64,000 nt of DNA from Thalassobaculaceae bacterium (GCA_965228875.1 OZ245843.1:310001-374000); one strand, 5' to 3'; counted from the stretch's first letter, positions 6,518 through 36,550 are shown. A program made the numbers and translations. Notes: generated by a model not told the origin, from the letters alone.

Positions 6518-7198
6518 TCAGGGCACCACCCGACCGTTCTCGATGACCAGGGTTCGGTCGCAGCGGGCGGCCAGTGCCGGATCGTGTGTGACCAGCAACA
6601 AGGTCGTGCCGGAACTGCGGGCCAGGTCGAACATGGTCGCGATGACCACCTCTCCGGTCTGCTGATCCAGGTTGCCGGTCGGCTCGTCCGCCAGAACCAG
6701 GCGGGGTGAGGCGACGAAGGCGCGGGCGATCGCGACGCGCTGCTGTTCGCCGCCGGACATGGCCGACGGCCGATGGTTGAGGCGGTGGCCGAGACCGACA
6801 CGCTCCAGCATCCTCGCCGCAGCTTCCGGTGCGCCGGGCTCGTCCGCCAGGGTCAGAGGCAGCGCCGCGTTCTGAAGCGCGGTCATCGACGGCACCAGGT
6901 GGTAGGCCTGGAAGACGATGCCGATGTCGCGTCGCCGCAGCAGCGTGCGGGCACGTTCGCTCTCGCCCGACATCTCGATGCCGAGGATCCGGGCTTCTCC
7001 GGCGGAGAGCGGTTCCAGACCGCCGATCACGGCGATCAGGGAGGACTTTCCGGAGCCGGACGGACCGGTCACGGCGACGATCTCGCCGGCGGCGATATCC
7101 AGGTCGATGCCGTTCAGCACCTGGATGTCGCCCTCCGGAGAGGGATAGGAGAGGCGGGCCTTGGAAAGCCGGACGATGGGAGCAGCAGTCAGATCCAT
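6518..7198 (-). CDS. YbbA/LolD-like ABC transporter ATP-binding protein
   Basis: [45 protein letters not shown]. Confidence 0.9.
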
Positions 7199-22771: not shown

Positions 22772-23121
22772 ACCGCGGCCGTGCCGGAGTTCAAACGCCG
22801 ATACTTGCGATCGCGATCAGGATTTCGAGCCGAATCGCCGGCTCGGGCAAGAGATCGGGTCGAAGATGTTGCGCCGAGTGATAGTGGTGCGTGTTGTAGT
22901 GCTCTGATTTCGCGTGCATGGAGACTTGCGGTTCCGTGCCGGGCGTCCCACAAGCTGTGCAAAGTGTCTGTACAGACACGGCGTGGCTTGCATTTCCGGG
23001 CTTAGCGAAAATAAGAATCTAATCGCGGATAGTTTGATCCGGGTCACAATGCTACCAGCCATGCCCGGATCCGGTGCTGTATGCAATAGACTGTAGGAGT
23101 CGCTCTGACCGGGGAGGGGGG

Positions 23122-24195
23122 ATGACTCAGATCGTTGATACGCTGATCGCCGACGGGGCCGAAGATCCGATCCCGAGCGCGGTGTTCAGTTTGGATACCG
23201 TGGCCGCGCGCGAGCGCTACGATCTGTGGCGGGACAGCATTTCCTGCATCTTCCAGGCGGATGTCGATCGGGACGTGCGGAGCGACGGCTTCTTCGCAGA
23301 GGTGGACGCGAACATGTTCGGCCCGCTCATGCTGGCCCGAACGAAGAGTCGCGAGCATCTCTGGCAGCGCACGCCGTCGATCCTGGCCCGCGATGGCATG
23401 GATCACTACATGATCCAGCTCTATGAATACGGCGAGATGGTCTGGGAGACGGACACCGGAACGCGCAGCCTGCCGAAGAACGGGCTCATGGTCATCGATC
23501 TCTCCCAGGAACTGCGCACGAAGACCTCCGACTTTCAGAACCTGTCGCTGATCGTGCCGCGTGAGATGCTCGACGGAGCGCTGAAATCGCCGAGCGACCA
23601 GCACATGAGAGTGCTTGGTGGCGAAGAACCGATGGTGACGCTGCTGCGCGATCACATGGTGTCGCTGAAGGGCCTGGCGGGGCGGATGACCCAGCAGCAG
23701 GCCATGGAGATCGCCCCGGCCACCGTGGGGCTGGCCGCGGCCTGCCTGAACGCTGCCGTCAATCAGGAGTCGCCGGCGGAGCGGGGCGGCGTGGTGTTGG
23801 CCCAGCTGACCGTGATCCGGCGGTTCATCGAGGCCAACCTTTCCGAGCCGGACCTGTCGGCGGACTGGATCGCGAAGGGCGTGGGGGTTTCCAGATCGAA
23901 GCTGTACCAGTTGTTCGATGCTTTCGGCGGGGTCGGAACCTATATCCGGGACCGGAGACTGAGGCGTGCCCTGCTCGCGCTTACGGACAACAGGTCGCGT
24001 CACCGTCCGATCTACGATATTGCGCTCGCCTCGGGGTACTCGAGCGATGCGGCGTTCAGCCGGGCGTTCCGGTCCCGCTACGGGATCGCACCGCGCGACG
24101 TCCGCAACAACGCGCATCCCCTGGATCGTATGGACAGGTATCGCGGCGACCTCGACCGTCGCTACGAACGCTGGTTGCATCACCTGTCGGTCTGA
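23122..24195 (+). CDS. AraC-family transcriptional regulator (FeaR-like N-terminal domain)
   Basis: GGAGG RBS. ERYDLWRD N-terminus, C-terminal double HTH IEANL...GVSRSKLYQLF...IRDRRL...IYDIALASGYSSDAAFSRAFRSRYG. Confidence 0.92.
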   Translation: MTQIVDTLIADGAEDPIPSAVFSLDTVAARERYDLWRDSISCIFQADVDRDVRSDGFFAEVDANMFGPLMLARTKSREHLWQRTPSILARDGMDHYMIQLYEYGEMVWETDTGTRSLPKNGLMVIDLSQELRTKTSDFQNLSLIVPREMLDGALKSPSDQHMRVLGGEEPMVTLLRDHMVSLKGLAGRMTQQQAMEIAPATVGLAAACLNAAVNQESPAERGGVVLAQLTVIRRFIEANLSEPDLSADWIAKGVGVSRSKLYQLFDAFGGVGTYIRDRRLRRALLALTDNRSRHRPIYDIALASGYSSDAAFSRAFRSRYGIAPRDVRNNAHPLDRMDRYRGDLDRRYERWLHHLSV

Positions 24196-24517: not shown

Positions 24518-25765
24518 ATGGCGATATTTCGAGAGAAGGCGCTCAAGCGGCTTTCATCGCCGGAAAACCTGGACGAGGCGCTGGTCGCGGCGTCGCCATT
24601 TCATTGGGTCGCCTTCCTCTCGGCGGGTGCGCTGGTTGCGGCCGCCGTCGCCTGGGGCGTGTTCGGCAGCGTGCCGACGCGGATCAAGGCGGACGGCATC
24701 CTGCTGCATCGCGACAGCGAGGTGTTCTCGGCCTCGGCGGAAGGGACGGGCAAGCTGATCGACGTGACGGTCGCGCTCGGCGACCGGGTCACGGCGGGAC
24801 AGGTCGTCGCCCTGTTGAACCAGGACGTCGACGAGCGCCGCCTGGAACTCCTGGTCGACAAGATGCAGAGCGCGCGGGCCAGACGCGATGCCGACGAGAG
24901 GGCGCAGCGCGAGGACAGCGTTCTCCGCGCGGACCTGATGGCGAAAGAACGTGCCTCGCTCTCCGCGAAGATCGCCAATGCGAAGGCGCGCGAGGCCAAC
25001 CTGCTTGAATTGGTCGCCGACATGCGGAGCCTGCTCAAGCGAGGGTTCATCGAGCGTTCGCGGCTCCTGGCCCGGGAAAACGAACTGATTCAGGTGCGCG
25101 AGACCATCGCGGATCTCAACAACTCCCTGGTCAAGCTCGAGGTCCAGAACCGGGAACGCGCGGAGTACTGGAGAGACCGCGTCTACGCCTCTGAGAAGGA
25201 ACTCGAGGCGCTGCACGACGAGATGGAGAACATCCGCGAGCAGCTCAAACGGGTCCAGACCGTCGACGCGCCGATCACCGGCACGGTCACGGAGATCTCT
25301 GCCAGCCTGGGCGACGTGATCGCCGCCGGAACGGCCGTGGTCCGGATCGTCTCCGAGGCGACGGAGATGGATGCCCTGCTTTTCGTCCCACCGTCGGACG
25401 GCAAGCTGATCAAGCCGAACCTGACCGCGAATATCGAGCCGACGGTGGCGAAGAAGGAGGAGTTCGGCACCATCCTCGCCAATGTCCGCAGCGTCTCGGA
25501 CCTGCCGATGTCGTCCTCGGCGATCCAGGCGATGCTGCAGAACGAGAAGCTGGTCCAGCAGTTCAGCGCCAAGGGCGCTCCGGTGGCGGTCCGTGCCGAC
25601 CTGCTCGAGGCGGGTAATGACAAGGAACGGTTCCGGTGGACCGGCGGTGCGGGGCCGAGCTTCGACATCGAGCAGGGTACCCTCGTTGCGGCGACCATCA
25701 CCGTGCGCCGTCAGCGCCCGATCACGCTGATCCTGCCGTTCCTCAAAAACCTCGTCGGCCTCTGA
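24518..25765 (+). CDS. NHLP bacteriocin system secretion protein (HlyD-type membrane fusion protein)
   Basis: IFREKALKRLSSPENLD N-terminus, single TM, lipoyl halves flanking a coiled coil, EEFGTI, QRPITLILPFLK C-terminus. Confidence 0.9.
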   Translation: MAIFREKALKRLSSPENLDEALVAASPFHWVAFLSAGALVAAAVAWGVFGSVPTRIKADGILLHRDSEVFSASAEGTGKLIDVTVALGDRVTAGQVVALLNQDVDERRLELLVDKMQSARARRDADERAQREDSVLRADLMAKERASLSAKIANAKAREANLLELVADMRSLLKRGFIERSRLLARENELIQVRETIADLNNSLVKLEVQNRERAEYWRDRVYASEKELEALHDEMENIREQLKRVQTVDAPITGTVTEISASLGDVIAAGTAVVRIVSEATEMDALLFVPPSDGKLIKPNLTANIEPTVAKKEEFGTILANVRSVSDLPMSSSAIQAMLQNEKLVQQFSAKGAPVAVRADLLEAGNDKERFRWTGGAGPSFDIEQGTLVAATITVRRQRPITLILPFLKNLVGL

Positions 25766-25767
25766 CC

Positions 25768-27927
25768 ATGGCGGCCGGTATGAAGATCGCGAACCGCCGG
25801 GTGAAGACGCCGACCGTGCTGCAGATGGAGGCGGTCGAATGCGGCGCCGCGGCGCTGGGGATCGTTCTGGCGCATCACGGCAAATGGCGGCCGCTGGAGG
25901 AGCTCCGGACCGAGTGCGGCGTGTCCCGCGACGGCTCGAAGGCCAAGAACGTCCTGTACGGCGCCCGACGCTACGGGCTGCAGGCCAAGGGGCGCAAGGC
26001 GCTGGTCGAGACCGCGCTCAACACCCCGTTTCCCTTCATCGCGTTCTGGAACTTCAATCACTTCCTGGTGGTCGAGGGGTATCGGAACGGCATCGTCTAC
26101 CTGAACGACCCGGCAACCGGCCCGCGAACGGTGACGCTGGAGGACTTCGACAACGCGTTCACGGGCGTGATCCTCGTCTTCGAGCCCGGCGAAGGGTTCA
26201 CCCGCGATCCCAAGCCGCCCGGTGTGATCGCCCGCCTGCTGCCGCGCACGGCCTCCATCCGCAGTGCGATCCTGCTGTCGGTGCTGATCAGCCTCACCCT
26301 GGTCGTGCCGGGGCTCGTGGTTCCGGGATTCTCCAAGGTCTTCGTCGACGAAGTGCTGATCAACGGCAAGGACGACTGGCTCGGCCCTCTCCTGCTGTTC
26401 ATGGTCGGAACGACGATCGTGACCGCGATACTGACGTGGCTCCAGCAGGCGGTGCTGCTTCGAACGGAGTCGAAGTTGGCACTGGCGGCGTCGGCGCGCT
26501 TCGTCTGGCACCTGATCCGCCTGCCGATCGACTTCTTCAATCAGCGCCATCCGGGCGACATCTCCAACCGCATCGACGCGAACGACAGGATCGCAGCCTC
26601 TATCGCCGGCGATCTCGGCGAGAGCCTGGTGAGTGTCGTCCGCGTGGTGTTCTACGGCGCGGTGATGCTGGCGTTCGACTGGATCCTCGCGATCGCGGCC
26701 ATGGCTCTCTCGCTGACGAACATTCTGGTCTTCCAGGTCCTGATGCGTCGCCGCGCTGACGCGAGCCTGCGCGTGCAGCAGGAGTTCGGGCAGTTTCAGT
26801 CGGCCTCTGTCACCGGCATTCAGGCGATCGAGACGTTGAAGGCCACGGGAACCGACGATGACTATTTCGAGCGCTGGGCCGGGTTCCAGGCCAAACATCT
26901 GAACAACCAGCGTCGTCTCGGGCTGTATGGGGTCATCGCCAACAGCTTTCCGCCCCTGCTGGACGGTCTGACGATCGCCGCGGTGCTGGGGCTCGGCGGC
27001 TGGCGGATCATGCAGGGCGAGATGACGATCGGCACGCTCGTCGCCTTCCAGGCGCTGATCCAGAATTTCTCCGGACCGATCAACGCCCTGGTCGCGACCG
27101 GCGGTGCGATACAGGAGCTCAACGCCGATCTGATCCGTACCGATGACGTCTTCAAGCAGGACCGCGACCGCCGGTATGCGGACCGGTCGGGTGGACAGAT
27201 CGACCGGCTGAGCGGCCGCATCGAGCTGCGCGACGTGACCTTCGGCTACAGCCGGCTCGAGCCGCCGCTGATCGAGAACTTCAACCTGACCATCGAGCCG
27301 GGCGCGCGGGTCGCCCTGGTCGGTGGTTCGGGCAGTGGGAAATCGACCATCGCCAAGTTGATGACGGGCCTCTACCGGCCCTGGTCGGGCGAGATCCTGT
27401 ATGACGGCCGGCCGTTGGACAGCATCCCCGTGTCGACCCTTACCCAGTCGATCGCCTCGGTCAGCCAGGAGATCATCCTGTTCGGCGGCACCGTCCGCGA
27501 CAACCTCAGCGCCTGGGACGAGCAGGTTCCGGCCGAGGAGATGATCGAAGCGCTCGACGATGCCCGGATTCTGGATGTCATCTCCGGCCGGGGAGGTGCG
27601 CTGGAGGCCGAGGTCGACGAGGGCGGCGGCAACTTCAGTGGCGGCCAGGCCCAGCGCATCGAGATCGCCCGCGCGCTGTCGATCGACCCGTCGATCCTCA
27701 TTCTCGACGAGGCGACCAGCGCCCTCGACGCGACGACGGAGGGCGAGATCGATGTGGCGATCCGGCGCCGTGGCTGCACCTGCGTCATCGTCGCCCACCG
27801 GCTGTCGACCATCCGTGACGCCGACGAGATCGTCGTCCTGAACTTCGGTCAGGTCGTGGAGCGTGGCAGCCACGATGAACTGGCCGAGGCCGACGGGCCC
27901 TATGCCCAGCTGATTGCGCAGGGGTGA
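25768..27927 (+). CDS. NHLP-type ABC exporter with N-terminal C39 peptidase (PCAT)
   Basis: [19 protein letters not shown] (catalytic Cys), [18 protein letters not shown] (His), [23 protein letters not shown]. Confidence 0.93.
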
Positions 27928-27931
27928 GCGG

Positions 27932-30799
27932 ATGAGCAGCGTGGAGCCGATCGACGAGACAGGCACGGTGCGCACGGTCAGCGGCCGCGACCGGATCTCG
28001 CTGTCAGCGGGACACAGTCTCCTGAGTGTCGAGCGGGGTGCGGTCAATCTGTTTATCCAGCTCACGGCTGAGGACGGCACGCCGTTGGGGGCCCGGCGCA
28101 TGATTGCCGCCCTCGAGCAGGGTGCCATGCTGCCGCTACCGGGTTGCGCTTTCGACGGCATGCGTCTGATGGTGGTCGGCGTCGGTGCCTCGGCGATCCG
28201 CCTGTTCGACGCCGATGAGCGCGACACTGTCACGGCCGATCCGGACACCTTCGTGATCGCGACGGGCATCGGGTTGGCGAGGCTGTTGCGCGACGCCGGC
28301 GGCCGGGACCGGTCCGAACATGCGGCTTTTCTGATCTCGCCCGGAGAGAGCGCCGTCCTCGCAAGTGGTACCGCGGTGTCCGCCGCCCGCCCGACGTGGA
28401 TCCTGTCCCGCGACGCCGGAACGGATCGCGACGCGTCCGACATCGCTCTGGTTGGCCCAGGCCGGTCGATCACGCTCGCCGCCGAGGGGGAACTGCGCGC
28501 GCTGGACATCGCGCAGCTGATCCGCGAGCGGGGGTGGCAGCCGGTCGATCGCTGGGTCACGGATGCCATGGTCGACGTCGCACGCGACCTGCAAGAATGG
28601 ATGGAGGAGCGCCGGCGCCGCATGGCCCGTGTGACGGAAGACGACGTTGCCCAGTTGGACAACGCCCTCGGCCGTTTGCCGGCAATCGTCAACGACGGTG
28701 CGACGCGTGCGCCGACGGTCGGGGTGCGCGGCTCCGTGCCGTCCATCGTCAGCGCACTGCGGCTGGTCTGCGAGGCCCAGCGGATCGAGTTTTCGCCGCC
28801 GGCCGAGGTGCTCGACGACCCGGATCCGGAAGTCGTGCTGCAGGATGTCCTGCGCCGGGCCAATCTGCGGTTCCGCAAGATCGTCCTGCCGGACCGCTGG
28901 TGGCGTCGCGACGGCGAGAACGCCGTCGGCTTCGATCTCGAGACCGGGGACCCGCTGGCGATCCTGCGGACCGGGTCGGGGAGGTTCGAACGGGTATCGC
29001 CGGTAGACGGCTCCCGTTCCCGCATCGGAGCCGCATCGGCCAGACGGATCGACGAGCAGGCCTTCGTGGTCTTCAAACCGCTGCCGTTCCGACCGCTCAA
29101 GGCCATGGACCTCGTCAGACATGTGCTGTCGGGGCGGGCGCGTTTCGACATGCGCTGGGCAGCCGTGCTGGCGGTGCTGACCGCGCTGCTCGGTCTGCTG
29201 CCGCCGATCCTGACCGGGCAGTTGCTGAACGAGGTCGTGCCCTTCGCCGAAGAGCAGCGGCTGATCGTTCTCGCCCTGGGGCTTGCCTTCATGGCGCTGG
29301 GAAGCGCGGCGTTCCAACTGGTCCGGTCGATCGCCCTGCTGCGGGTCGAGGCATTCGCCGACGGCGCGCTCCAGGCGGCGGTCTGGGACCGGCTGCTGCG
29401 GCTGCCGCTTACCTTCTTCCGCAGCTACGAGATCGGCGACCTGCTGATAAAGGCGATGGGACCGACACAGTTGCGCCAGGCGGTGTCCGATACCGCGCTG
29501 AGTTCGGCCCTGTCGGCGATCTTCTCGGTCGTGAACTTCGTGCTGATGATGACGTACGACTCCGCCCTCGCCGGCGCGGCCTTCGTCTTCACGCTGGTCA
29601 CCAGCCTCATTCTGCTCGGGCTCAGCCGCCTGCAGCTCCGCTTCGAACGGGTCCAGCTGAAGGCGGATGCCTCCGTCTCCAGTTTCATCATCCAGATCCT
29701 GGTCGGGATCCAGAAGATCCGCCTGATGGGGGCCGAGGACCGGGCGTTCGCGCGCTGGGTGCACCGGTTCGCGGATCAGCGTCAGCACCTGGTCCGTGCC
29801 GCCCGCATCGGAAACGCGATCCAGACCTTCAGCGTCGTTCTGCCCGTGCTTGCCAGCATCATGTTCTTCTACATGGTCGGTACCGCCGGGGAGGACCGTC
29901 TCTCCGTCGGCAGTTTCGTCGCCTTCAACGCCGCATTCGGCGGTTTCCACGGCGCGTTGCTCGGCCTGGTCTCGGCGGTGTCGGCGTCGCTGTCGGCGAT
30001 ACCGGTCTACGAGAACATGAAGCCGATCATGGACGAACAGCCGGAGCTCGATCCCGAGCGGAACCCCGCACCTGTGCTCGACGGCGGTATTCATCTCAGC
30101 AAGGTGTCCTTCCGCTACGACGAGGACGGCCCGCTGATCCTCGACGGCATCGACATGAGCATCGGAGCGGGTCAGTTCGTCGCCTTCGTCGGCCCGTCCG
30201 GTTCCGGCAAGTCGACGCTCTTCCGTTTGCTGCTCGGCTTCGAGACGCCGGAACAGGGGACCATCGGCTACGACGGGCTCGACCTCTCGCGCCTCGACCT
30301 GAAGACGGTGCGCCGTCAGATCGGCGTCGTTCTTCAGCGCGGTGCGATCCTGCCGGGGTCGATCTTCGAGAACATCGTCGGTTCCGCGCCGCTGTCCCAG
30401 GAGGAAGCCTGGGAGGCGGCCCGCATGGCGGGGCTCGACGAAGACATTCAGCACATGCCGATGGGGATGCACACCGTCCTGACCGAGGGCGGCGGCACCT
30501 TGTCGGGCGGTCAGCGCCAGCGGCTGATGATCGCCCGGGCGGTGGTGCGCAAGCCGCGCATCCTGCTGATGGACGAGGCGACCAGCGCGCTGGACAACCG
30601 GACCCAGGCGATCGTTTCGGAGTCGCTGGCCCATCTCAACGCCACGCGGATCGTCATCGCCCACCGACTGAGCACCGTGGTCAACGCCGACCGCATCTTC
30701 GTCGTCGTCGGGGGTCGTGTCGTCCAGGCGGGGACCTATGACGAGCTGATGCAGGTGGACGGCCCGTTCCGCGACCTCGCGCAGCGGCAGATTGCGTGA
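27932..30799 (+). CDS. NHLP-type ABC exporter, second (peptidase-less) permease/ATPase subunit
   Basis: Long N-terminal extension, WWRRDG motif, [27 protein letters not shown]. Third member of the NHLP export triad. Confidence 0.9.
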   Translation: MSSVEPIDETGTVRTVSGRDRISLSAGHSLLSVERGAVNLFIQLTAEDGTPLGARRMIAALEQGAMLPLPGCAFDGMRLMVVGVGASAIRLFDADERDTVTADPDTFVIATGIGLARLLRDAGGRDRSEHAAFLISPGESAVLASGTAVSAARPTWILSRDAGTDRDASDIALVGPGRSITLAAEGELRALDIAQLIRERGWQPVDRWVTDAMVDVARDLQEWMEERRRRMARVTEDDVAQLDNALGRLPAIVNDGATRAPTVGVRGSVPSIVSALRLVCEAQRIEFSPPAEVLDDPDPEVVLQDVLRRANLRFRKIVLPDRWWRRDGENAVGFDLETGDPLAILRTGSGRFERVSPVDGSRSRIGAASARRIDEQAFVVFKPLPFRPLKAMDLVRHVLSGRARFDMRWAAVLAVLTALLGLLPPILTGQLLNEVVPFAEEQRLIVLALGLAFMALGSAAFQLVRSIALLRVEAFADGALQAAVWDRLLRLPLTFFRSYEIGDLLIKAMGPTQLRQAVSDTALSSALSAIFSVVNFVLMMTYDSALAGAAFVFTLVTSLILLGLSRLQLRFERVQLKADASVSSFIIQILVGIQKIRLMGAEDRAFARWVHRFADQRQHLVRAARIGNAIQTFSVVLPVLASIMFFYMVGTAGEDRLSVGSFVAFNAAFGGFHGALLGLVSAVSASLSAIPVYENMKPIMDEQPELDPERNPAPVLDGGIHLSKVSFRYDEDGPLILDGIDMSIGAGQFVAFVGPSGSGKSTLFRLLLGFETPEQGTIGYDGLDLSRLDLKTVRRQIGVVLQRGAILPGSIFENIVGSAPLSQEEAWEAARMAGLDEDIQHMPMGMHTVLTEGGGTLSGGQRQRLMIARAVVRKPRILLMDEATSALDNRTQAIVSESLAHLNATRIVIAHRLSTVVNADRIFVVVGGRVVQAGTYDELMQVDGPFRDLAQRQIA

Positions 30800-30832: not shown

Positions 30833-31123
30833 ATGTCGACCACGGACTCGGATCTGGATCTGGTCCTAGCGCGGCTTGCGGACGACCCGGCGTTCTTCGA
30901 GGCCTGTCAGCGGGCGACCAGGGGCCGACAGGGCGACGAGGCGATCCTGAGGTTGATGAATTTCGCTTCGGAGTCCGGCTACGAGGTCACGTTCCAGGAG
31001 GCGAAGGAGACGCGGAAGCGCGCTCTCACCCTGCAGGCCGAGCGGATGCGCGTGCTTCGCGAGGCGCTGGCCCGCGAGCGCGGCCGGGACGTTCGTCTCG
31101 AGGATTTCTTCAGGCAGTGGTGA
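30833..31123 (+). CDS. Nif11-like small protein without a double-glycine site (96 aa, ends EDFFRQW)
   Basis: GAGGAG RBS. LADDPAF...QGDEAI...ASESGYEVT resembles the downstream leaders, and it shares their C-terminal Trp motif. Confidence 0.75.
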   Translation: MSTTDSDLDLVLARLADDPAFFEACQRATRGRQGDEAILRLMNFASESGYEVTFQEAKETRKRALTLQAERMRVLREALARERGRDVRLEDFFRQW

Positions 31124-31286
31124 CGGGCCGTCACCGTCATCCGATCGATCGAGCTCGGCGGGCCGCAGGAATGCCCGTCATCCGCCGAGCCAACAGGCCG
31201 GCCGGGAAGCATTTTCCGGTTCGGACCGATGTCGACGGACGGGCGTACCAACGCTCCCGCAGGGGCGCAACCAAGAGGAGTTCAAG

Positions 31287-31733
31287 ATGACAATGCAGGC
31301 AATGGCGTCGTTTGTGGAGAAGGCGCAGCAGGATCCGGCACTGGCCGAAGAACTGGTCACCATCATCGATCAGAACGACACCGACGCGATCTATTCCAAG
31401 GTGGTGACGCTCGCCAACGACAACGGCTTCTCCGTGACCGTCGATGACGTGAAGGAGACCCGTCAGCAGTTCGAGAAGATGTCCGACGCGGGGTACGAGG
31501 GCGACATGAGCGACGACGAGCTCGACAACGTCTCCGGCGGTATCGTCGTGTCCTCGGCGGTCGCGGCCGCCATCATCACCGGTGGACTCGGCGTTGCCGC
31601 GGCGGGCGTCGGAGCGGCTGGTGCCGTCGGCGCGGCGGGTGTCGGCGCCGGTGGCGTGATCGCGGCGGCGGTGATTAAGCGCGGTATCAACAACACCGTC
31701 AACGACATCGGCAATTTCTTCAAGAAGTGGTGA
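31287..31733 (+). CDS. Nif11-like leader RiPP precursor A1 (85-aa leader, 63-aa core)
   Basis: FVEKAQQDPALAEEL...ANDNGFSVT...MSDDELDNVSGG, then an Ala/Gly/Val-rich core ending GNFFKKW. Confidence 0.9.
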   Translation: MTMQAMASFVEKAQQDPALAEELVTIIDQNDTDAIYSKVVTLANDNGFSVTVDDVKETRQQFEKMSDAGYEGDMSDDELDNVSGGIVVSSAVAAAIITGGLGVAAAGVGAAGAVGAAGVGAGGVIAAAVIKRGINNTVNDIGNFFKKW

Positions 31734-31738
31734 CCGAT

Positions 31739-31767
31739 GGCTGCGGGTGCACTCCGTACCCGCAGCC
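31739..31767 (+). promoter_or_regulatory. Intergenic stem-loop between A1 and B1
   Basis: GGCTGCGGGT...ACCCGCAGCC 10-bp stem followed by pyrimidine-rich TCCTCTTC. Conserved in the second repeat copy. Confidence 0.6.
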
Positions 31768-31797
31768 TCCTCTTCAACGCTTGCAGGGATCAGAAGC

Positions 31798-32223
31798 ATG
31801 TCCAATCAGGCAATGACACAGATGCTCGAAAAGGCTATGGCCGACGAGGGTTTCGCCCAGGGGCTTGTTGCCGCCGTCGGCGAGAAGCAGGGCGACGCGG
31901 CGATCGATGCCGTGGCCGAGTACGGCAAGGCGAACGGCTTCGCCGTCACCGCTCAGGACGCCACGGAGATGCAGCGCCATCTCATGGCGACGGCCGTTAC
32001 CCCCGAAGGCGATCTCGACGATGCGGACCTCGACAATGTGGCGGGTGGTGTCGGCGTGCTTTCGCCGTTCGTCAGCGGATTCGGCAGTGGCGGCGGCCTG
32101 AACAACGCGTTGTCGAATTGGCACATCGGCGGCGGCGTCCGTCCGCAGCCGGCCGGCCCCTCGGTCGGCCAGGCCATCGATCAGGGGCTCCGGTCGGTCG
32201 AGAACTTCATCCGGCAGTGGTAG
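31798..32223 (+). CDS. Nif11-like leader RiPP precursor B1 (84-aa leader, 57-aa core)
   Basis: ...GKANGFAVT...LDDADLDNVAGG, then a core ending ENFIRQW. Confidence 0.88.
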   Translation: MSNQAMTQMLEKAMADEGFAQGLVAAVGEKQGDAAIDAVAEYGKANGFAVTAQDATEMQRHLMATAVTPEGDLDDADLDNVAGGVGVLSPFVSGFGSGGGLNNALSNWHIGGGVRPQPAGPSVGQAIDQGLRSVENFIRQW

Positions 32224-32230
32224 TCCGCCG

Positions 32231-32276
32231 GTGTCGGCACATCGGTCCAGTCATTGTCGCAGCGATGTGCCGACAC
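32231..32276 (+). promoter_or_regulatory. 14-bp inverted repeat after B1
   Basis: GTGTCGGCACATCG-N18-CGATGTGCCGACAC. Confidence 0.55.
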
Positions 32277-32491
32277 GGGGGCTACCCGGACCGGTCCGAG
32301 AAGCCCTCTCGTGATCGTCGATGGCATGCGGACCGACTGTCGCGTCCATGCCAATCGAGCTCGGCGGGTCCAGGACATGGCCGTCATCTGATGAGTCAAC
32401 CAACCAGTCGGGGAAGCTTCTCCGGTTCGGACGATGCCGGCGGACGGGCGCACCAAGGCTTCCGCCGTGGCGCAATCAGGAGGAGTTCAAG

Positions 32492-32956
32492 ATGACAATG
32501 CAGGCAATGGCTTCGTTTGTGGAGAAGGCTCAGCAGGATCCGGAACTAGCCGACGAACTGGTCTCCATCATCGATCAGAACGACACCGACGCGATCTATT
32601 CCAAGGTCGTGGCACTCGCCAACAACAACGGCTTCGCCGTGACCGTCGATGACGTGATGGAGACCCGTCAGCAGTTCGAGAAGATGCCCGAGGGGGGATA
32701 CCAGGGCGACATGAGCGACGACGAACTCGACAACGTCTCTGGTGGCATCGCGTCGGCGGTCCAAGCCACCGGTTCACCACTCGGCAATGCTGCGGCCGCC
32801 GGTGCCGTGGGTGTCCGCACCGCTGCTATGACGTCCACGGCGATCGTTCAAGCCGCGGACTTGAGTGCAGCGGGCGCCCGCGTCGGTGGGGGCATCGCCT
32901 CGGCGGTGACCAAGCGCGGCGTCAATGACTTTGGTAGCTTCATCAAAAAGTGGTGA
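32492..32956 (+). CDS. Nif11-like leader RiPP precursor A2 (85-aa leader, 69-aa core)
   Basis: Leader 74/85 identical to A1 by manual alignment. ELDNVSGG site, core ends GSFIKKW. Confidence 0.9.
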   Translation: MTMQAMASFVEKAQQDPELADELVSIIDQNDTDAIYSKVVALANNNGFAVTVDDVMETRQQFEKMPEGGYQGDMSDDELDNVSGGIASAVQATGSPLGNAAAAGAVGVRTAAMTSTAIVQAADLSAAGARVGGGIASAVTKRGVNDFGSFIKKW

Positions 32957-32962
32957 TCGATT

Positions 32963-32989
32963 GCTGTGGGTGCGCTCCGTACCCGCAGC
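32963..32989 (+). promoter_or_regulatory. Intergenic stem-loop between A2 and B2
   Basis: GCTGTGGGT...ACCCGCAGC. The C>T change relative to copy 1 keeps pairing as U-G. Confidence 0.55.
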
Positions 32990-33020
32990 CTCCTCTCCAA
33001 CACGTCCAAGGATCAGGGTC

Positions 33021-33407
33021 ATGTCCAATCAGGCAATGATACAGATGCTCAAGAAGGCGATGGGCGACGAAGGTTTCGCCCAGCGGTTCGTTACCGCCGT
33101 CGGCGACAAGCAGGGCGATGCGGCGATCGAGGCCGTGGCCGAGTACGGCAAGGCGAACGGCTTCGCCGTCACCGCTCAGGACGCTGCGGAGATGCAGCGC
33201 CAGTTCATGGCCACGGCCGATACCGCCGAGGGCGACCTCGACGATGCTGACCTCGACAATGTGTCAGGCGGTCTCAACATGTTTTCGCAGTGGACCAACA
33301 AGTCTGGCTTAACAAACCCGCCGTCGCATTGGCAGGTCGGCCGCGAACGTCTGCAACCGGCCGGCCCGTATGCCAGCCAGGCCGGGAACTTCATCCGTCA
33401 GTGGTAG
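33021..33407 (+). CDS. Nif11-like leader RiPP precursor B2 (84-aa leader, 44-aa core)
   Basis: Leader 70/84 identical to B1 by manual alignment. DLDNVSGG site, core ends GNFIRQW. Confidence 0.88.
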   Translation: MSNQAMIQMLKKAMGDEGFAQRFVTAVGDKQGDAAIEAVAEYGKANGFAVTAQDAAEMQRQFMATADTAEGDLDDADLDNVSGGLNMFSQWTNKSGLTNPPSHWQVGRERLQPAGPYASQAGNFIRQW

Positions 33408-33529: not shown

Positions 33530-35065
33530 ATGGACGATGAGATGAAGAGCCAAGCGCATACAGGCTCGCTGACCGACAATCGCCAGGTCCCTGACTGGTC
33601 CGGGGTTGTCGGCGGGGCATACGTGCTGACCGACCCCGCCGACCGTGCCGCCTGGGGGCGCCGGACCTTCGGGCCGGACGTCCCGGTGGCCGCAGTCGTG
33701 CGGCCGGGTTCCGCTGCCGAGGTCGCCGGAGCGCTCCGGATGGCGACGCAGCATCGGCACCCTGTCCACCCCGTCAGCCGGGGTGCGAACTGGGGCATGG
33801 GCTCGCGGGCGCCGATGCAGTCAGGGGCGGCGATCCTGGACCTGTCACGGCTTACGACGATCGAGGAGGTGGACTTCCGGCACGGCGTGGTGCGGGTCGA
33901 ACCGGGCGTAACGTTCCAGATGCTCGCCGATTACCTGACCGAGCGCGGCTCGCGTTTCTTCGTACCGGAAATCGGCGGGTCGCCGGATGCCAGCGTCCTT
34001 GCCAATGCGTTGGACCGTGGAGACGGCGCCCTGGGCGACCGGTGGGCGTCGCTGAGCGATCTGGCTGTCGTCCTGCCGGACGGCCGCGTTGTCGAGACCG
34101 GGTTCGCCGGACGGTCGGCGCATCGTCTCGCCGGTCTGCACGAGGGCGCCGCCGGTCCGGTGATCGACGGACTGTTCAGCCAGTCGAACCTTGGCGTCGT
34201 CGTGGCTGGCTGCCTTCGCCTCGAACCGATGCCGGAGAACCTCGCCATATTCAGCGTGCGTGTCGACGCGCGGGAGGCGATGCCCGACATGCTTGAGGTG
34301 CTGCGCGAGATGCAGGTCGCCGGTGCGGTGCGCGACCGGTCGGTGACGCTGTGGAACGGCGTGAAGTTCCTGGCTCGCGAGAATCCACGGGTCCGGTACG
34401 ACGAGAGCGCAATCCGGCAGGCGGCGACCGAGACATGGATGATGTCCGGCTACCTCCAGGGCGAGACCGAGGCCCTGCTCACCCAACGCGGCAACTGGGT
34501 TCTGGAGCGTTTCGCCGCCGGCGGCATGCAGGCGGACGCCAGTCTGGTTCGCATCGGCGGCCAGTGGCTCGACGGATGCGACGGTCTGCTCGGCAGCCCG
34601 AGTCCACGCAATCTGCGCACCGCCTACTGGAGCGAGGACGGTATTCCAGAGGCCGAGGCCATGGATCCGGACGCCGACGGTTGCGGGCTGCTCTGGCTTT
34701 GCATCGCGTTTCCGTTCGACGGGGAGGTCGTGGCGCAGTTCGCGCTGCGGGCGGCGACCATCCTCGGGCGCTACGGAATCGACTTCAACTTCGGTGCGGA
34801 AGCCGTAAGTTTTCGCTGTCTGCTGTCCTACGTGAGCATGTCGTATCGACGGGACGGCCCGGACGACGACGCGTGTGCAGTCGAGGCCTACAGCGCCGTA
34901 CTGGAGGAGGCGGAGGCGATGGGGCTCGCTCCGTACAGGTTGGCGAACGGTCTGGCGAGAAGCTGCCGGTCGTATCCTGATCCTCTGGACGACTACCTGG
35001 CCGCGCTCCGCCAGGTTGCGGATCCGGCGGGGATCCTCTCGAAAGGCCGTTCCGGTATCGGCTGA
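33530..35065 (+). CDS. FAD-binding oxidoreductase, VAO/p-cresol methylhydroxylase flavoprotein family
   Basis: VSRGANWGMGS, LDLSRL, VEPGVTF..L, SVLANALDRG, GPVIDGLFSQSNLGVV, C-terminal PYR and DPAGILSKGRSGI. Start could also be 33542. Confidence 0.85.
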   Translation: MDDEMKSQAHTGSLTDNRQVPDWSGVVGGAYVLTDPADRAAWGRRTFGPDVPVAAVVRPGSAAEVAGALRMATQHRHPVHPVSRGANWGMGSRAPMQSGAAILDLSRLTTIEEVDFRHGVVRVEPGVTFQMLADYLTERGSRFFVPEIGGSPDASVLANALDRGDGALGDRWASLSDLAVVLPDGRVVETGFAGRSAHRLAGLHEGAAGPVIDGLFSQSNLGVVVAGCLRLEPMPENLAIFSVRVDAREAMPDMLEVLREMQVAGAVRDRSVTLWNGVKFLARENPRVRYDESAIRQAATETWMMSGYLQGETEALLTQRGNWVLERFAAGGMQADASLVRIGGQWLDGCDGLLGSPSPRNLRTAYWSEDGIPEAEAMDPDADGCGLLWLCIAFPFDGEVVAQFALRAATILGRYGIDFNFGAEAVSFRCLLSYVSMSYRRDGPDDDACAVEAYSAVLEEAEAMGLAPYRLANGLARSCRSYPDPLDDYLAALRQVADPAGILSKGRSGIG

Positions 35066-35113: not shown

Positions 35114-36550
35114 TCAGTCCTGGAAATAGCGGTCGCCCGTGGTGGCGAGGCCATACCATCGGTCGCGAACCTCGCGGTAGTGCCGGTCGTAATCGTAGTA
35201 GTCGACGGGCAGGGCGAGGTCCTGTGCGGTCAGCCGTCCCATCGCGGCGAGAAGCTGGTAGCCGGACACCAGGACGTCGTAGCGCGCGCGGACCAGGCGG
35301 ACCTGACCGTCCAGCAGGGACTGCTCCGCGTCGAGGACGTCGAGGACCGTCCGGGCCCCGACCGCCGCCTCGCTGCGAACGCCTTCCAGCGCCAGCGTTG
35401 CCGCCGATATCTGCGTCTCCAAGGCGTCGATCTGAGACAGATTGCCCTGCAGCGCCTCGAAAGCGTTGGCCGCCTCCTCTCGTGCCGACCGGAGCTGGTC
35501 GATCGCGGTGAAGCGCAGCCGGCGGAGGTTCTCGTGGGCCTCCCGGGCCTTCGAGGAGGCGATGCCGGACTGGTACAGCGGCACGGAGAGCCGCAGGGTG
35601 GCGGTCGCGGCCCAGTTCAGGTTGTCTCCACCGCCGGAATTTTCGGCGCGGCTGACATCGGCCACGAGATCGAGGGATGGCAGCAGGTCGGACTCCGCCG
35701 CGTCGAGCTGATGCGCGGCGGCAGCTTCCGCGAAACTGGCCTGGATCAGGGCGAAGTTGCCGTCTGTGGCTGCATCGACCGCCGCGGAGCGGGTCTCCGG
35801 CAGCGCCGTCGGCAGTGTCGGAACCGTAAGCTGGCCGGGAATGCTGCCGATGACGCGCTCGTAGGTGACGCGGGCCTGTGCCAGGCTGGCTTCGGCCTGC
35901 CGTACGTTGGCTCTTGCTTCCGCGACACTGGCTTGCGCCTGGGCGACGTCTGTGCGGGTCAGGTCGTCGACCTCGAAGCGTGCCGTCGTCGCCTCCAACT
36001 GCCTGTCCAACCGGTCGAGATTGTTACGCTGCAGGCTGAGTGTGGCCGACTCGCGGATCACCGTCATATAGGCCGTGACGGCCGAGATGAAGGTGTCCTG
36101 TTCGGCCCGGAACAGTGCCGCGCGCTGGGACTCGATCGTTGCGTCCGCAGCTTCGACCTTCGCTTCGACCCGGCCGAAGGTATAGAGCGGTTGGGTCGCC
36201 TGCAGCGTGAGGTTGGTCGGATAGGAACTGTTGCTGACGGTGTAGCCGTTCGACGTCTGCTCCACTGAGGTTGCGCCGACCGATCCCGACGCGTTGACCT
36301 GCGGGCGCCAGCCGCCGAGCGCCTGGGGCGACAACTCGTCGGTCTGTCGCAGTTGCGCCCTCGCGGCGATCAGCGCCGGATTGCCGACATACGCGCGGAC
36401 CAGTGCTTCGTGCAGCGTCTCCCCGGCTGCCTGTCGCCACGGGACGATCAGCGCGATCGCCGCCAGGGACACGATCGTCAGGGGACGAAGGCTGGAACGG
36501 AGCGGCAGAGTAAGGCCCGCCCTGAAGAGCATCGAATACAGGTTTATCAT
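35114..36550 (-). CDS. tolC: TolC-family type I secretion outer-membrane channel
   Basis: Signal peptide then ETLHEAL..AY..NP, TRTDVAQAQA, VPLYQSG, VGARTVLDVLDAEQ, LLAAMGRLTA. Confidence 0.92.
   Translation of the reverse strand: MINLYSMLFRAGLTLPLRSSLRPLTIVSLAAIALIVPWRQAAGETLHEALVRAYVGNPALIAARAQLRQTDELSPQALGGWRPQVNASGSVGATSVEQTSNGYTVSNSSYPTNLTLQATQPLYTFGRVEAKVEAADATIESQRAALFRAEQDTFISAVTAYMTVIRESATLSLQRNNLDRLDRQLEATTARFEVDDLTRTDVAQAQASVAEARANVRQAEASLAQARVTYERVIGSIPGQLTVPTLPTALPETRSAAVDAATDGNFALIQASFAEAAAAHQLDAAESDLLPSLDLVADVSRAENSGGGDNLNWAATATLRLSVPLYQSGIASSKAREAHENLRRLRFTAIDQLRSAREEAANAFEALQGNLSQIDALETQISAATLALEGVRSEAAVGARTVLDVLDAEQSLLDGQVRLVRARYDVLVSGYQLLAAMGRLTAQDLALPVDYYDYDRHYREVRDRWYGLATTGDRYFQD

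Follow-up and report, generated by a model that had tools for sequence, protein, structure and literature searches.

Peptides of a Nif11/NHLM-type export cluster share a C-terminal tryptophan tail that co-occurs with a VAO/PCMH-family flavoenzyme

Clusters of the Nif11/NHLM kind make and export many peptides from one operon. Such systems, with Nif11-type leaders, were reportedly first described by Haft and colleagues in 2010, and the tailoring enzymes of these clusters that are known to us read the leader of the precursor. Here we analyzed a 64,000-nucleotide stretch of DNA (the window) of Thalassobaculaceae bacterium (GCA_965228875.1, OZ245843.1), which covers positions 310001-374000 of a one-contig 4.96-Mb genome and has a GC content of ~65%. 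On its + strand, at positions 30833-33407, five tandem small open reading frames (ORFs), named P0, A1, B1, A2 and B2, each end with the motif F-[FI]-[KR]-[KQ]-W followed by the stop codon (the tail), and the adjacent gene encodes a FAD enzyme of the vanillyl-alcohol oxidase/p-cresol methylhydroxylase (VAO/PCMH) family. The cluster belongs to the Nif11/NHLM kind, i.e., it has a long Nif11 leader ending in a double glycine (GG), tandem precursors with hypervariable cores and the same three export genes. It is unlike the known members in that it has no lanthipeptide synthetase, cyclodehydratase or radical SAM enzyme and no Cys in the cores of its peptides, the VAO/PCMH flavoenzyme is the sole candidate tailoring gene, and the precursors carry a conserved C-terminal tag, which was absent from the distant Nif11 loci used as a control (see below).

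Enzymes that target the final residue of a ribosomally made peptide, as is proposed here, are known elsewhere. The LanD/HFCD flavoproteins catalyze the oxidative decarboxylation of a C-terminal Cys, and the epimerase MslH is said to act on the C-terminal Trp of the lasso peptide MS-271; however, they belong to other enzyme families with other target chemistry, and neither comes with a pentapeptide tag across unrelated cargoes. With the class II microcins and the class IIb bacteriocins the locus shares the GG leader, the combination of a PCAT transporter with HlyD and TolC, the paired small genes and the Gly-rich hydrophobic cores, whereas the long Nif11 leader, the lack of a small membrane immunity gene and the presence of a shared tag and a flavoenzyme set it apart. 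The nearest functional precedent is provided by the srp proteusins, in which the flavin-dependent halogenase SrpI brominates the C-terminal Trp of the SrpE core, LCCCW (PMC10858898), so that a flavoenzyme tailors the conserved C-terminal Trp of a long-leader precursor. SrpI needs the LxxxxL motif of the leader and acts on a 5-residue azoline core (PMC10858898). The long leader, the conserved C-terminal Trp, the flavoenzyme (with a tailoring role that is only proposed here) and the marine bacterial host are common to both systems. In contrast, the flavoprotein family of the window enzyme is an unrelated one, the tail accompanies this enzyme regardless of leader type, and the cargoes span 33-343 residues; domain scans of the gene island revealed neither a flavin-dependent (Trp) halogenase nor a YcaO cyclodehydratase, the two enzymes that mark srp-type bromination.

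Conservation of the C-terminal tail

The initial annotation had claimed that all five proteins end in the motif, that the four cores measure 63, 57, 69 and 44 amino acids (aa), and that the tail is retained across three paralogue types. The ORFs and their ends were confirmed on the + strand, the core lengths were reproduced when counted after the GG site, and the tail was indeed kept in three types of protein whose cores are 16-21% identical between types. The leaders of A1, B1, A2 and B2 have an acidic linker that closes with NVSGG or NVAGG, a double-glycine site that is absent from P0. A1 and A2 scored 32.1 and 32.0 bits with PF07862 (cut-off 23.8) and 36.5 and 34.5 bits with TIGR03798 (cut-off 32.3), the Nif11-like leader family of precursors for peptides made by the ribosome and then modified post-translationally (RiPPs). 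B1 reached 20.2 bits with TIGR03798, under the cut-off, and B2 and P0 had no match in the library scan of domain families; a leader profile of our own tied B1 (1e-17) and B2 (2e-19) to the Nif11 family. With hhalign, the A-type leader (residues 8-64) could be aligned to residues 10-66 of P0 at a probability of 77% (E 2e-5). The AlphaFold2 (AF2) model of P0 is all-helical (mean pLDDT 74.7), and its last helix, which covers the tail, is of low confidence; Foldseek found no match for the model in the PDB at E≤0.001 (best E 0.98), and the ESM Atlas gave leads only, at 0.82, to Nif11-domain clusters. The A-type cores show many GxxxG spacings in a long Gly/Ala-rich hydrophobic stretch, which is followed by a basic, aromatic end, and the A2 core weakly resembles the CTB bacteriocin family NF038167 (16.7 bits, below the cut-off of 32).

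The motif was found in 5 of the 808 stop-to-stop ORFs of at least 40 aa in the window, 25 of which end in W, and in 5 of the 59,855 six-frame ORFs of the whole genome, 1,521 of which end in W, with either the strict or a loosened pattern. In both counts the carriers were exactly the five tandem genes, and a chance origin of the shared tail is excluded. The A-B unit is a tandem repeat of ~1.2 kb, with leaders that are 87-91% identical in DNA, and the DNA just past the stop codons of B1 and B2 is 78% identical; recent duplication accounts for part of the likeness among the genes. At the protein level the identity between A1 and A2 is 87% in the leader and 43% in the core minus its last five residues, and between B1 and B2 it is 83% and 31%, respectively. 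Since each of the five copies has its own codon at position -3 (AGG, AAG, CGG, AAA and CGT), the tail is conserved at the protein level. A joint between the tails of B1 and B2 (window 32214 to 33399), which skips 1,184 bases corresponding to the A2-B2 unit, was observed in contigs of two marine metagenome runs (X10 and X15), and X15 additionally shows a joint that goes back 1185; the 32214-33399 joint stems either from a strain that has a single A-B pair or from collapse of the repeat during assembly. Near-identical strains were present in four metagenome runs, and among the differences listed none fell in the 75 tail bases, where only ~1 would be expected. A scan for terminators and promoters returned sites that were no commoner than in shuffled sequences (4 vs 2.9, and 0 vs 0.5, respectively).

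Queries with A1 and B1 brought up 18 database proteins in addition to those of the window, and 17 of them carry the tail, in the form FFKKW, FIKKW, FIRQW, FFSKW, FFSRW, LFKKW or FVKQW. Among their sources Nisaea denitrificans and N. nitritireducens are named, and the others are marine and other metagenomes. The shape of the tail was then read from 39 distinct cores, aligned at the C-terminus and selected for ending in [KRQN]W. In this set, W occupies position -1 in 39/39 cores, and position -2 is K (27), Q (8), R (3) or N (1). Position -3 is mostly K (25) or S (9), with R (2), A (1) and D (1) as minor forms; F (16) and I (13) prevail at -4 over L (4), V (3) and M (3); and F (30) or L (6) is found at -5 in 36 of the 39, the rest being K (2) and W (1). 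The information content jumps from 1.0-2.0 bits at positions -6 to -25 to 2.4-4.3 bits at -1 to -5, on cargoes with the above range of lengths, and across loci the tail can be written in the relaxed form [FLWK]-[FILVM]-x-[KQRN]-W. When the leader pattern was scanned for without a C-terminal filter, the tail was present on every GG peptide between the exporter and the enzyme, and untailed matches occurred only outside this interval. The proposal of the initial annotation that the end of these proteins is under selection is therefore supported, both by its retention in the homologues and in the exporter-to-enzyme peptides of related loci and by the rise in information content at the last five positions. 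Two candidate functions of the tail were dropped. Outer-membrane protein (OMP) beta-signals and DegS-type C-terminal motifs require a hydrophobic residue at -3, where the tail has K, S or R, and a Lys-Trp cross-link was discarded because the FIRQW and FFRQW tails have no Lys.

Co-occurrence of the tail with one flavoenzyme clade

A scan of genome contigs with the single enzyme sequence gave no match, but loci were found with enzyme alignments as the query. Within the taxonomic order of the window, another genus (Nisaea) has orthologues with 60-63% identity, in the gene order of the window, in 3 of its 10 genomes, and none was found in 10 other genomes of the window's own genus; the distribution of the enzyme is patchy. 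All of the 18 loci with an enzyme at least 47% identical to that of the window carry peptides with the relaxed tail, within ~5 kb. These loci, namely the window, three Nisaea loci, one alphaproteobacterial metagenome-assembled genome (MAG), nine Azospirillum-type genome loci and four metagenome contigs, fall into five gene arrangements. The three Nisaea loci keep the gene order of the window with five tailed genes each, and only in these genomes were P0 orthologues found (93 aa, GG-less and always the first gene of the array). In the alphaproteobacterial MAG (L018) a single Nif11 peptide that ends in DWMAKW lies directly upstream of the enzyme (53% identity), with housekeeping genes as neighbors and no HlyD or ABC gene within 8 kb.

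In the Azospirillum-type loci (nine in genomes and one on a metagenome contig) the enzyme is 48-50% identical, and the tailed protein has 365 aa, with a short non-Nif11 GG leader and a 343-aa cargo rich in Gly, Ser, Thr, Val and Ala that ends in KKMKKW. Its gene adjoins HlyD and PCAT genes, with a two-component system between it and the enzyme gene, and these loci have no ABC2, the second ABC transporter of the window, since tblastn matches of ABC2 fell only on the ATPase part of PCAT. The 365-aa gene lies at L019:3720-4817 (- strand), and likewise in L020-L022, L024 and L031-L035; in its cargo, Gly/Ser/Val repeats of the V-x-V-x type precede a series of T-A-Q-S-helix-like units, and a match to ApoLp-III is weak (3.5e-4, below the cut-off). 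Of the remaining metagenome contigs, L023 has an enzyme with 64% identity and a B-type peptide ending in SFIKKW, L025 has an enzyme with 47% identity, an exporter on the other side and five Nif11 peptides ending in DLFSKW, EFFDRW, NFFSKW, TFLTKW and DFLSKW, and L026 has a partial enzyme (55% identity) and two peptides ending in DLFSKW and DFFSKW. The pair in L018 and the short leader and 343-aa cargo of the Azospirillum-type loci argue that the tail follows the enzyme rather than the leader type, the cargo or ABC2. One further pair, a tailed peptide (P0019) and an enzyme with 56% identity (P0028), both assigned to one 197,789-base JGI contig, is suggestive only.

The controls pointed in the same direction. 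No tailed peptide was found in the four loci with more distant homologues of the enzyme (32-44% identity), one of which adjoins a ketoacyl synthase. A second control set consisted of 43 distant Nif11 loci of other phyla, taken among the matches listed for a scan of genome contigs with the A-type leader alignment. An enzyme hit at E≤1e-5 was obtained in 0/43 of these loci, and the tail in 0 of their 140 leader-bearing ORFs (8 of which end in W), with a PCAT homologue in 24 of the 43. Hence, the co-occurrence with VAO-family flavoproteins that the initial annotation had put forward as a check came out positive in the 18 loci and negative in the distant ones, and comparative genomics supports a link between the tail and the flavoenzyme. 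In a class-level sample, A-type leader hits were present in 3 of 401 alphaproteobacterial genomes, namely that of the window, one Nisaea and one other, in which the peptide is untailed.

The enzyme carries a FAD_binding_4 domain and aligns over its full length with solved members of the VAO/PCMH superfamily. Its best relatives are 9fge and 9ffk (2e-46, full length; 9fge over residues 23-510), which were assigned to nsVAO from a T-to-D difference between the chains at the position aligned to T181, and further ones are 8s7q and its mutants, p-cresol methylhydroxylase, and the eugenol and vanillyl-alcohol oxidases. Alignments with homologues begin at about residue 21, and the start of the enzyme is uncertain. 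The N-terminus shows no evident signal peptide, and the enzyme is taken to be cytoplasmic. Its relatives act by hydride abstraction at the benzylic carbon of 4-alkylphenols. The 4-phenol oxidases stabilize the phenolate by a Tyr-Tyr-Arg triad, the first Tyr of which we take to be the residue aligned with M90. The window enzyme keeps the Tyr-Arg pair (Y469/R470) and has Met (M90) in place of the third phenolate-binding residue, a Tyr, so that the triad is incomplete.

The group of 4-phenol-oxidizing enzymes comprises vanillyl-alcohol oxidase, eugenol oxidase, p-cresol methylhydroxylase, VAD and nsVAO, and its flavin-linking and flavin-contacting residues are given in PMC7617285. In this group the Tyr-Arg pair binds the anionic oxygen of the substrate, the positions of covalent FAD attachment (8-alpha-histidyl or 8-alpha-O-tyrosyl) correspond to L418/L409 of nsVAO (Table 1 of that paper), and the pair next to flavin N5 is acid/Leu in the oxidases and small/Pro-Ile in the dehydrogenases (PMC7617285). 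The window enzyme has L387 for the His and M378 for the Tyr at the flavin-linking positions, so that its FAD is probably non-covalent, and its N5 neighbors, E147/I148, correspond to neither form of the pair. In a collection of 5.8 billion the enzyme clade comprised 30 clusters at ≥42% identity, after which the identity dropped to ≤38%. Within the clade Y469 and R470 are invariant (30/30), and position 90 is L in 20/30 and M in 10/30, never Y, compared with Tyr in 13/32 of the outgroup. I148, W172 and N473 (30/30 each) and F428 (27/30) are also unlike the outgroup. Thus, the enzyme resembles the 4-phenol oxidizers in its FAD_binding_4 fold over the full length and in the Tyr-Arg pair, and differs from them in that the third Tyr is Met or Leu, no flavin-linking His or Tyr is present, the acidic N5 neighbor is not conserved, and its genomic partners are exported peptides, not aromatic catabolism genes. 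In source annotations, members of the clade appear only as 'FAD-binding oxidoreductase' or '4-cresol dehydrogenase'. In Azospirillum sp. INR13 (L022:8001-9469) the frame of the enzyme diverges from its relatives after about residue 468 of the alignment, beginning at the conserved P-Y-R-L-A-N-G stretch; a frameshift or a sequencing error is possible.

For the complex prediction the enzyme (as an alignment) and FAD were paired with the C-terminal 40 residues of A1, for which 12 A-type peptides were aligned. The scores were 0.60, 0.53 and 0.60, compared with 0.01 for the best of three controls, with at least 81% contact agreement between runs and a pLDDT of at least 55 for the partner; the verdict of the tool was 'weak support'. 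In the calibration of the tool, 58 of the 80 solved complexes passed its mark, as did 2 of the 110 mismatched pairs; of these, scores of ≤0.60 belonged to only 7 of the 80 solved complexes and to both mismatches. The prediction gives a small push to the idea that the enzyme may bind the tail.

The export island and other tailed or untailed peptides

The features of the locus are collected in Table 1. Equivalogs of HlyD, of the ABC transporter with a C39 peptidase domain (C39-ABC) and of the second ABC transporter, all above their cut-offs, are directly upstream of the peptides, i.e., the arrangement of an NHLM export system. The outside neighbors, acnB upstream and a major facilitator superfamily (MFS) transporter downstream, are not kept with the cluster in related loci, so that the island was taken to run from the araC-type gene to tolC. 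The coordinates of ABC1 are those of the listed ORF, and its true start is probably near 25768; from residue 45 onward it is 89% identical to its Nisaea counterpart. No Pfam match at E≤1 was found in the N-terminal ~277 aa of ABC2 (window 27914-28800; the first 295 aa were scanned). In domain scans of the island no aminoacyl-ligase-type enzyme, radical SAM enzyme or further tailoring gene was detected, and the C39 domain was the sole protease. No small membrane-protein gene was found in it either, and P0 is its only unassigned small gene.

Table 1. Positions of the peptide genes, their tail codons and the other genes of the island, in window coordinates
Feature	Position	Strand	Description
AraC-type helix-turn-helix (HTH) regulator	23074-24195	+	PF12833 HTH_18 6e-15; syntenic and 68-69% identical in three Nisaea loci; first gene of the island
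NHLM-type HlyD membrane-fusion protein	24518-25765	+	TIGR03794 251 bits vs cut-off 156; 75% identical in Nisaea
ABC1 (PCAT: C39 peptidase/permease/ATPase)	25636-27927	+	TIGR03796 1011 bits vs cut-off 853; PF03412 Peptidase_C39 3e-30
ABC2 (permease/ATPase)	27914-30799	+	TIGR03797 848 bits vs cut-off 709, residues 278-960
P0	30833-31123	+	96-aa Nif11-like helical protein, no GG cleavage site, ends DFFRQW
P0 tail codons (FFRQW)	31106-31120	+	
A1	31287-31733	+	148 aa, Nif11 leader + GG, 63-aa Gly/Ala-rich hydrophobic core, ends GNFFKKW
A1 tail codons (FFKKW)	31716-31730	+	
B1	31798-32223	+	141 aa, second leader type + GG, 57-aa Gly-rich polar core, ends ENFIRQW
B1 tail codons (FIRQW)	32206-32220	+	
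A2	32492-32956	+	154 aa, A1 paralogue, 69-aa core, ends GSFIKKW
A2 tail codons (FIKKW)	32939-32953	+	
B2	33021-33407	+	128 aa, B1 paralogue, 44-aa core, ends GNFIRQW
B2 tail codons (FIRQW)	33390-33404	+	
VAO/PCMH-family FAD enzyme	33530-35065	+	511 aa; PF01565 1e-21, 77 bits vs 26.4
TolC-family outer-membrane channel	35114-36550	-	TIGR01844 302 bits vs cut-off 225; syntenic and 61-67% identical in Nisaea; last gene of the island

Several other peptides were met during the analysis. An extra untailed Nif11-like GG peptide is encoded just upstream of the AraC-type gene in the Nisaea loci (L009:4016-4381, +; L010:3647-4066, +; L011:15289-15780, -), with a core of 26-31 aa that ends in SLSSS, SLSGS or EPQVM. 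It could be a signaling peptide for the cluster; the window has no counterpart of it, as acnB abuts the regulator there. N. nitritireducens has in addition an orphan tailed Nif11 peptide, the core of which ends in RFLRKW, off the contig of the main cluster (L088, G030:C70:43179-43454, -), and its genome gave one enzyme match at E≤1e-30. In L024 and L031 two untailed leader-pattern matches ending in SSSS lie on the strand opposite to the HlyD region.

Cyanobacterial Nif11 peptides (in a Thermostichus MAG, a cyanobacterial MAG and Chamaesiphon) have another Trp tail, P-K-[I/P]-K-W (L036:595-999 and 1281-1664; L044:6106-6495 and 6549-6905; L053:27-395 and 649-1008), and no VAO homologue was found at these loci. 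In L044 the peptides adjoin NHLM-type ABC1 and ABC2 genes, and the neighbors in L053 are two 2-oxoglutarate (2OG)-Fe(II) oxygenases, two metallo-beta-lactamase (MBL)-fold proteins, a zinc dehydrogenase and a JmjC protein. Among Nif11 peptides, ends of the basic-x-basic-Trp type may recur more widely. Finally, a Nif11-leader peptide of a Eubacteriales MAG (L075:1454-1807, +) ends in RFFGSW, a near-tail with S at -2; its contig is 2.8 kb long, and the neighbors are an AMP-binding enzyme and a macro-domain protein.

Readings of the tail and their implications

Whatever the leader, the cargo and the composition of the exporter, the tail goes with the enzyme, and for this reason we rank first, with roughly even confidence, the reading in which it is a cargo-independent tag that is read, and whose Trp is probably oxidized, by the flavoenzyme before export. 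In the scheme that we infer for the binding, the modification, its timing and the role of P0, the five genes would encode the cargo of an export cluster of the NHLM type for double-glycine peptides (AraC, HlyD, C39-ABC, second ABC and TolC). Judging from the protein families, the C39 domain would cut the four precursors after GG, and the two A+B pairs would be laid out like two-peptide bacteriocins. The tag (hydrophobic-hydrophobic-x-[K/Q/R/N]-Trp-COOH), independent of leader and cargo, would be bound by the adjacent cytoplasmic flavoenzyme, which would act before export by oxidizing the precursor at, or right next to, its terminal Trp. The chemistry might be the indole analogue of that of the phenol oxidizers and lead to a beta-hydroxy, dehydro or oxidatively decarboxylated C-terminal Trp; speculative targets are the beta-carbon of the indole side chain and the alpha-carbon beside the free carboxylate. 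P0, tagged and GG-less, would stay intracellular, where it might be an additional substrate of the enzyme, compete for it or regulate it. A more ambitious and quite tentative version of the proposal holds that the locus represents a new RiPP family, in which a VAO/PCMH-type enzyme is guided by a C-terminal pentapeptide 'follower' tag, not by the leader, and performs indole quinone-methide-type chemistry (beta-hydroxylation, alpha,beta-dehydrogenation or oxidative decarboxylation) on cargoes of 33-343 residues, with P0 as an intracellular decoy or regulator; in that case, arbitrary proteins could be modified enzymatically at the C-terminus, with the tag as a portable handle.

A number of observations weigh against the proposed reading of the tail by the flavoenzyme. 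The substrates of the VAO/PCMH relatives are small phenols in a closed cavity, and Trp is no phenol. The acid next to N5 is not conserved in the clade, where, among the 30 clusters, position 147 shows E (14), T (10), V (2) or S (2). The 18 loci reduce to about five independent cases, given that 10 of them are Azospirillum-type and 3 are from Nisaea, and they were located via searches with the enzyme, or with P0 in enzyme-bearing genomes. One homologue (P0011, on a 1.9-kb contig) is untailed and stops 9 residues before the end of B2. The score of the predicted complex lies in a range that the tool itself calls oftener wrong than right unless the guess is already likely. In addition, the strict co-occurrence, orphan pair included, would equally be expected of a toxin-immunity pair. 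Of the roles listed in the initial annotation, that of an enzyme-recognition or modification site is favored by the co-occurrence with the flavoenzyme, the modification itself being putative; the role of a receptor or membrane anchor, also listed there, is part of the rival reading below.

The strongest rival, which we consider rather unlikely, holds that the tail acts unmodified in the mature exported peptides, i.e., as a membrane-interface anchor or a receptor-binding end of two-peptide bacteriocins akin to class II microcins, and that the enzyme protects the producer or serves another purpose; it could, for example, oxidize the essential Trp of peptide that is retained in or re-enters the cell. 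The hydrophobic A-type cores with their GxxxG spacings and basic aromatic end, the alternation of A and B genes in pairs, the microcin-like PCAT/HlyD/TolC export and the sub-cut-off match of the A2 core to NF038167 fit this view. So do the lack of a small membrane immunity gene in the island, which would call for other means of self-protection, and the orphan peptide-enzyme pair of L018, which resembles a toxin-immunity module. However, the same tail is present on the GG-less and presumably cytoplasmic P0 and on the 343-aa Ser/Thr/Gly/Val-rich cargo, which is unlike a membrane peptide, and a pure anchor would not need the terminal Trp found in all of the 39 cores; furthermore, we know of no bacteriocin immunity protein of the VAO/PCMH family. 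Classical HlyB/HlyD/TolC substrates carry uncleaved C-terminal signals, and from this precedent of type I secretion the tail might instead be a second export or quality-control signal, read by PCAT, by a tail-specific protease or by the N-terminal region of ABC2, ~277 residues of which belong to no family. This is improbable, since the tail occurs in the Azospirillum-type loci, which have no ABC2, in L018, with no exporter nearby, and on P0, which has no GG, and is missing both from the extra Nif11 GG peptide beside the same exporter island in the three Nisaea loci and from all of the 24 distant loci with a PCAT homologue.

The initial annotation had also raised the idea of a real product released from a variable scaffold, with the terminal Trp being tailored and set free as a small molecule, as in pearlin-, PQQ- or mycofactocin-type pathways. 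An invariant terminal residue on variable carriers beside a redox enzyme is what this idea would predict; yet the island holds only a regulator, an exporter, the peptides, one flavoenzyme and TolC. From AraC to TolC it is fully accounted for, with no LanB-like peptide aminoacyl-tRNA ligase, as in pearlin pathways, no radical SAM enzyme, no releasing protease beyond C39 and no further tailoring gene. Long GG-leader cargoes served by an exporter of their own speak for the peptides as the actual product. The idea found no support and is very improbable. Least probable of all, to the point of being negligible, is a functionless leftover of recent duplication, for which the ~1.2-kb A-B repeat with its similar leaders and the similar DNA past the B1 and B2 stop codons could be invoked. 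It is refuted by the cross-lineage conservation of the tail, which spans genera, families and unrelated leaders and is common to three gene types with highly divergent cores, and the codon usage of the tail differs between copies.

In the full-text literature, as covered by a search with most subscription journals outside its reach, no paper was found that links VAO-type enzymes with ribosomal peptide precursors, none on Nisaea with Nif11, and nothing relevant on Nif11 with FAD-binding, TolC and bacteriocin, or on C-terminal tryptophan with flavin and double-glycine. The association described here is that of a short C-terminal tag on unrelated cargoes, behind two unrelated leader types, in every related locus found with one small and distinct clade of flavoenzymes, and this co-occurrence suggests that exported peptides are marked or modified in a manner not yet described. 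Should the flavoenzyme act on the tail, this would represent new post-translational chemistry on Trp, carried out by a tag-directed, leader-independent enzyme with a possible use in C-terminal protein labeling. If there is no modification, the tail still defines a family of exported peptides of marine and soil alphaproteobacteria, the shared end of which must serve a common step, e.g., targeting, anchoring or self-protection. In either case, the pairing of the tail with the flavoenzyme is a lead for genome mining.

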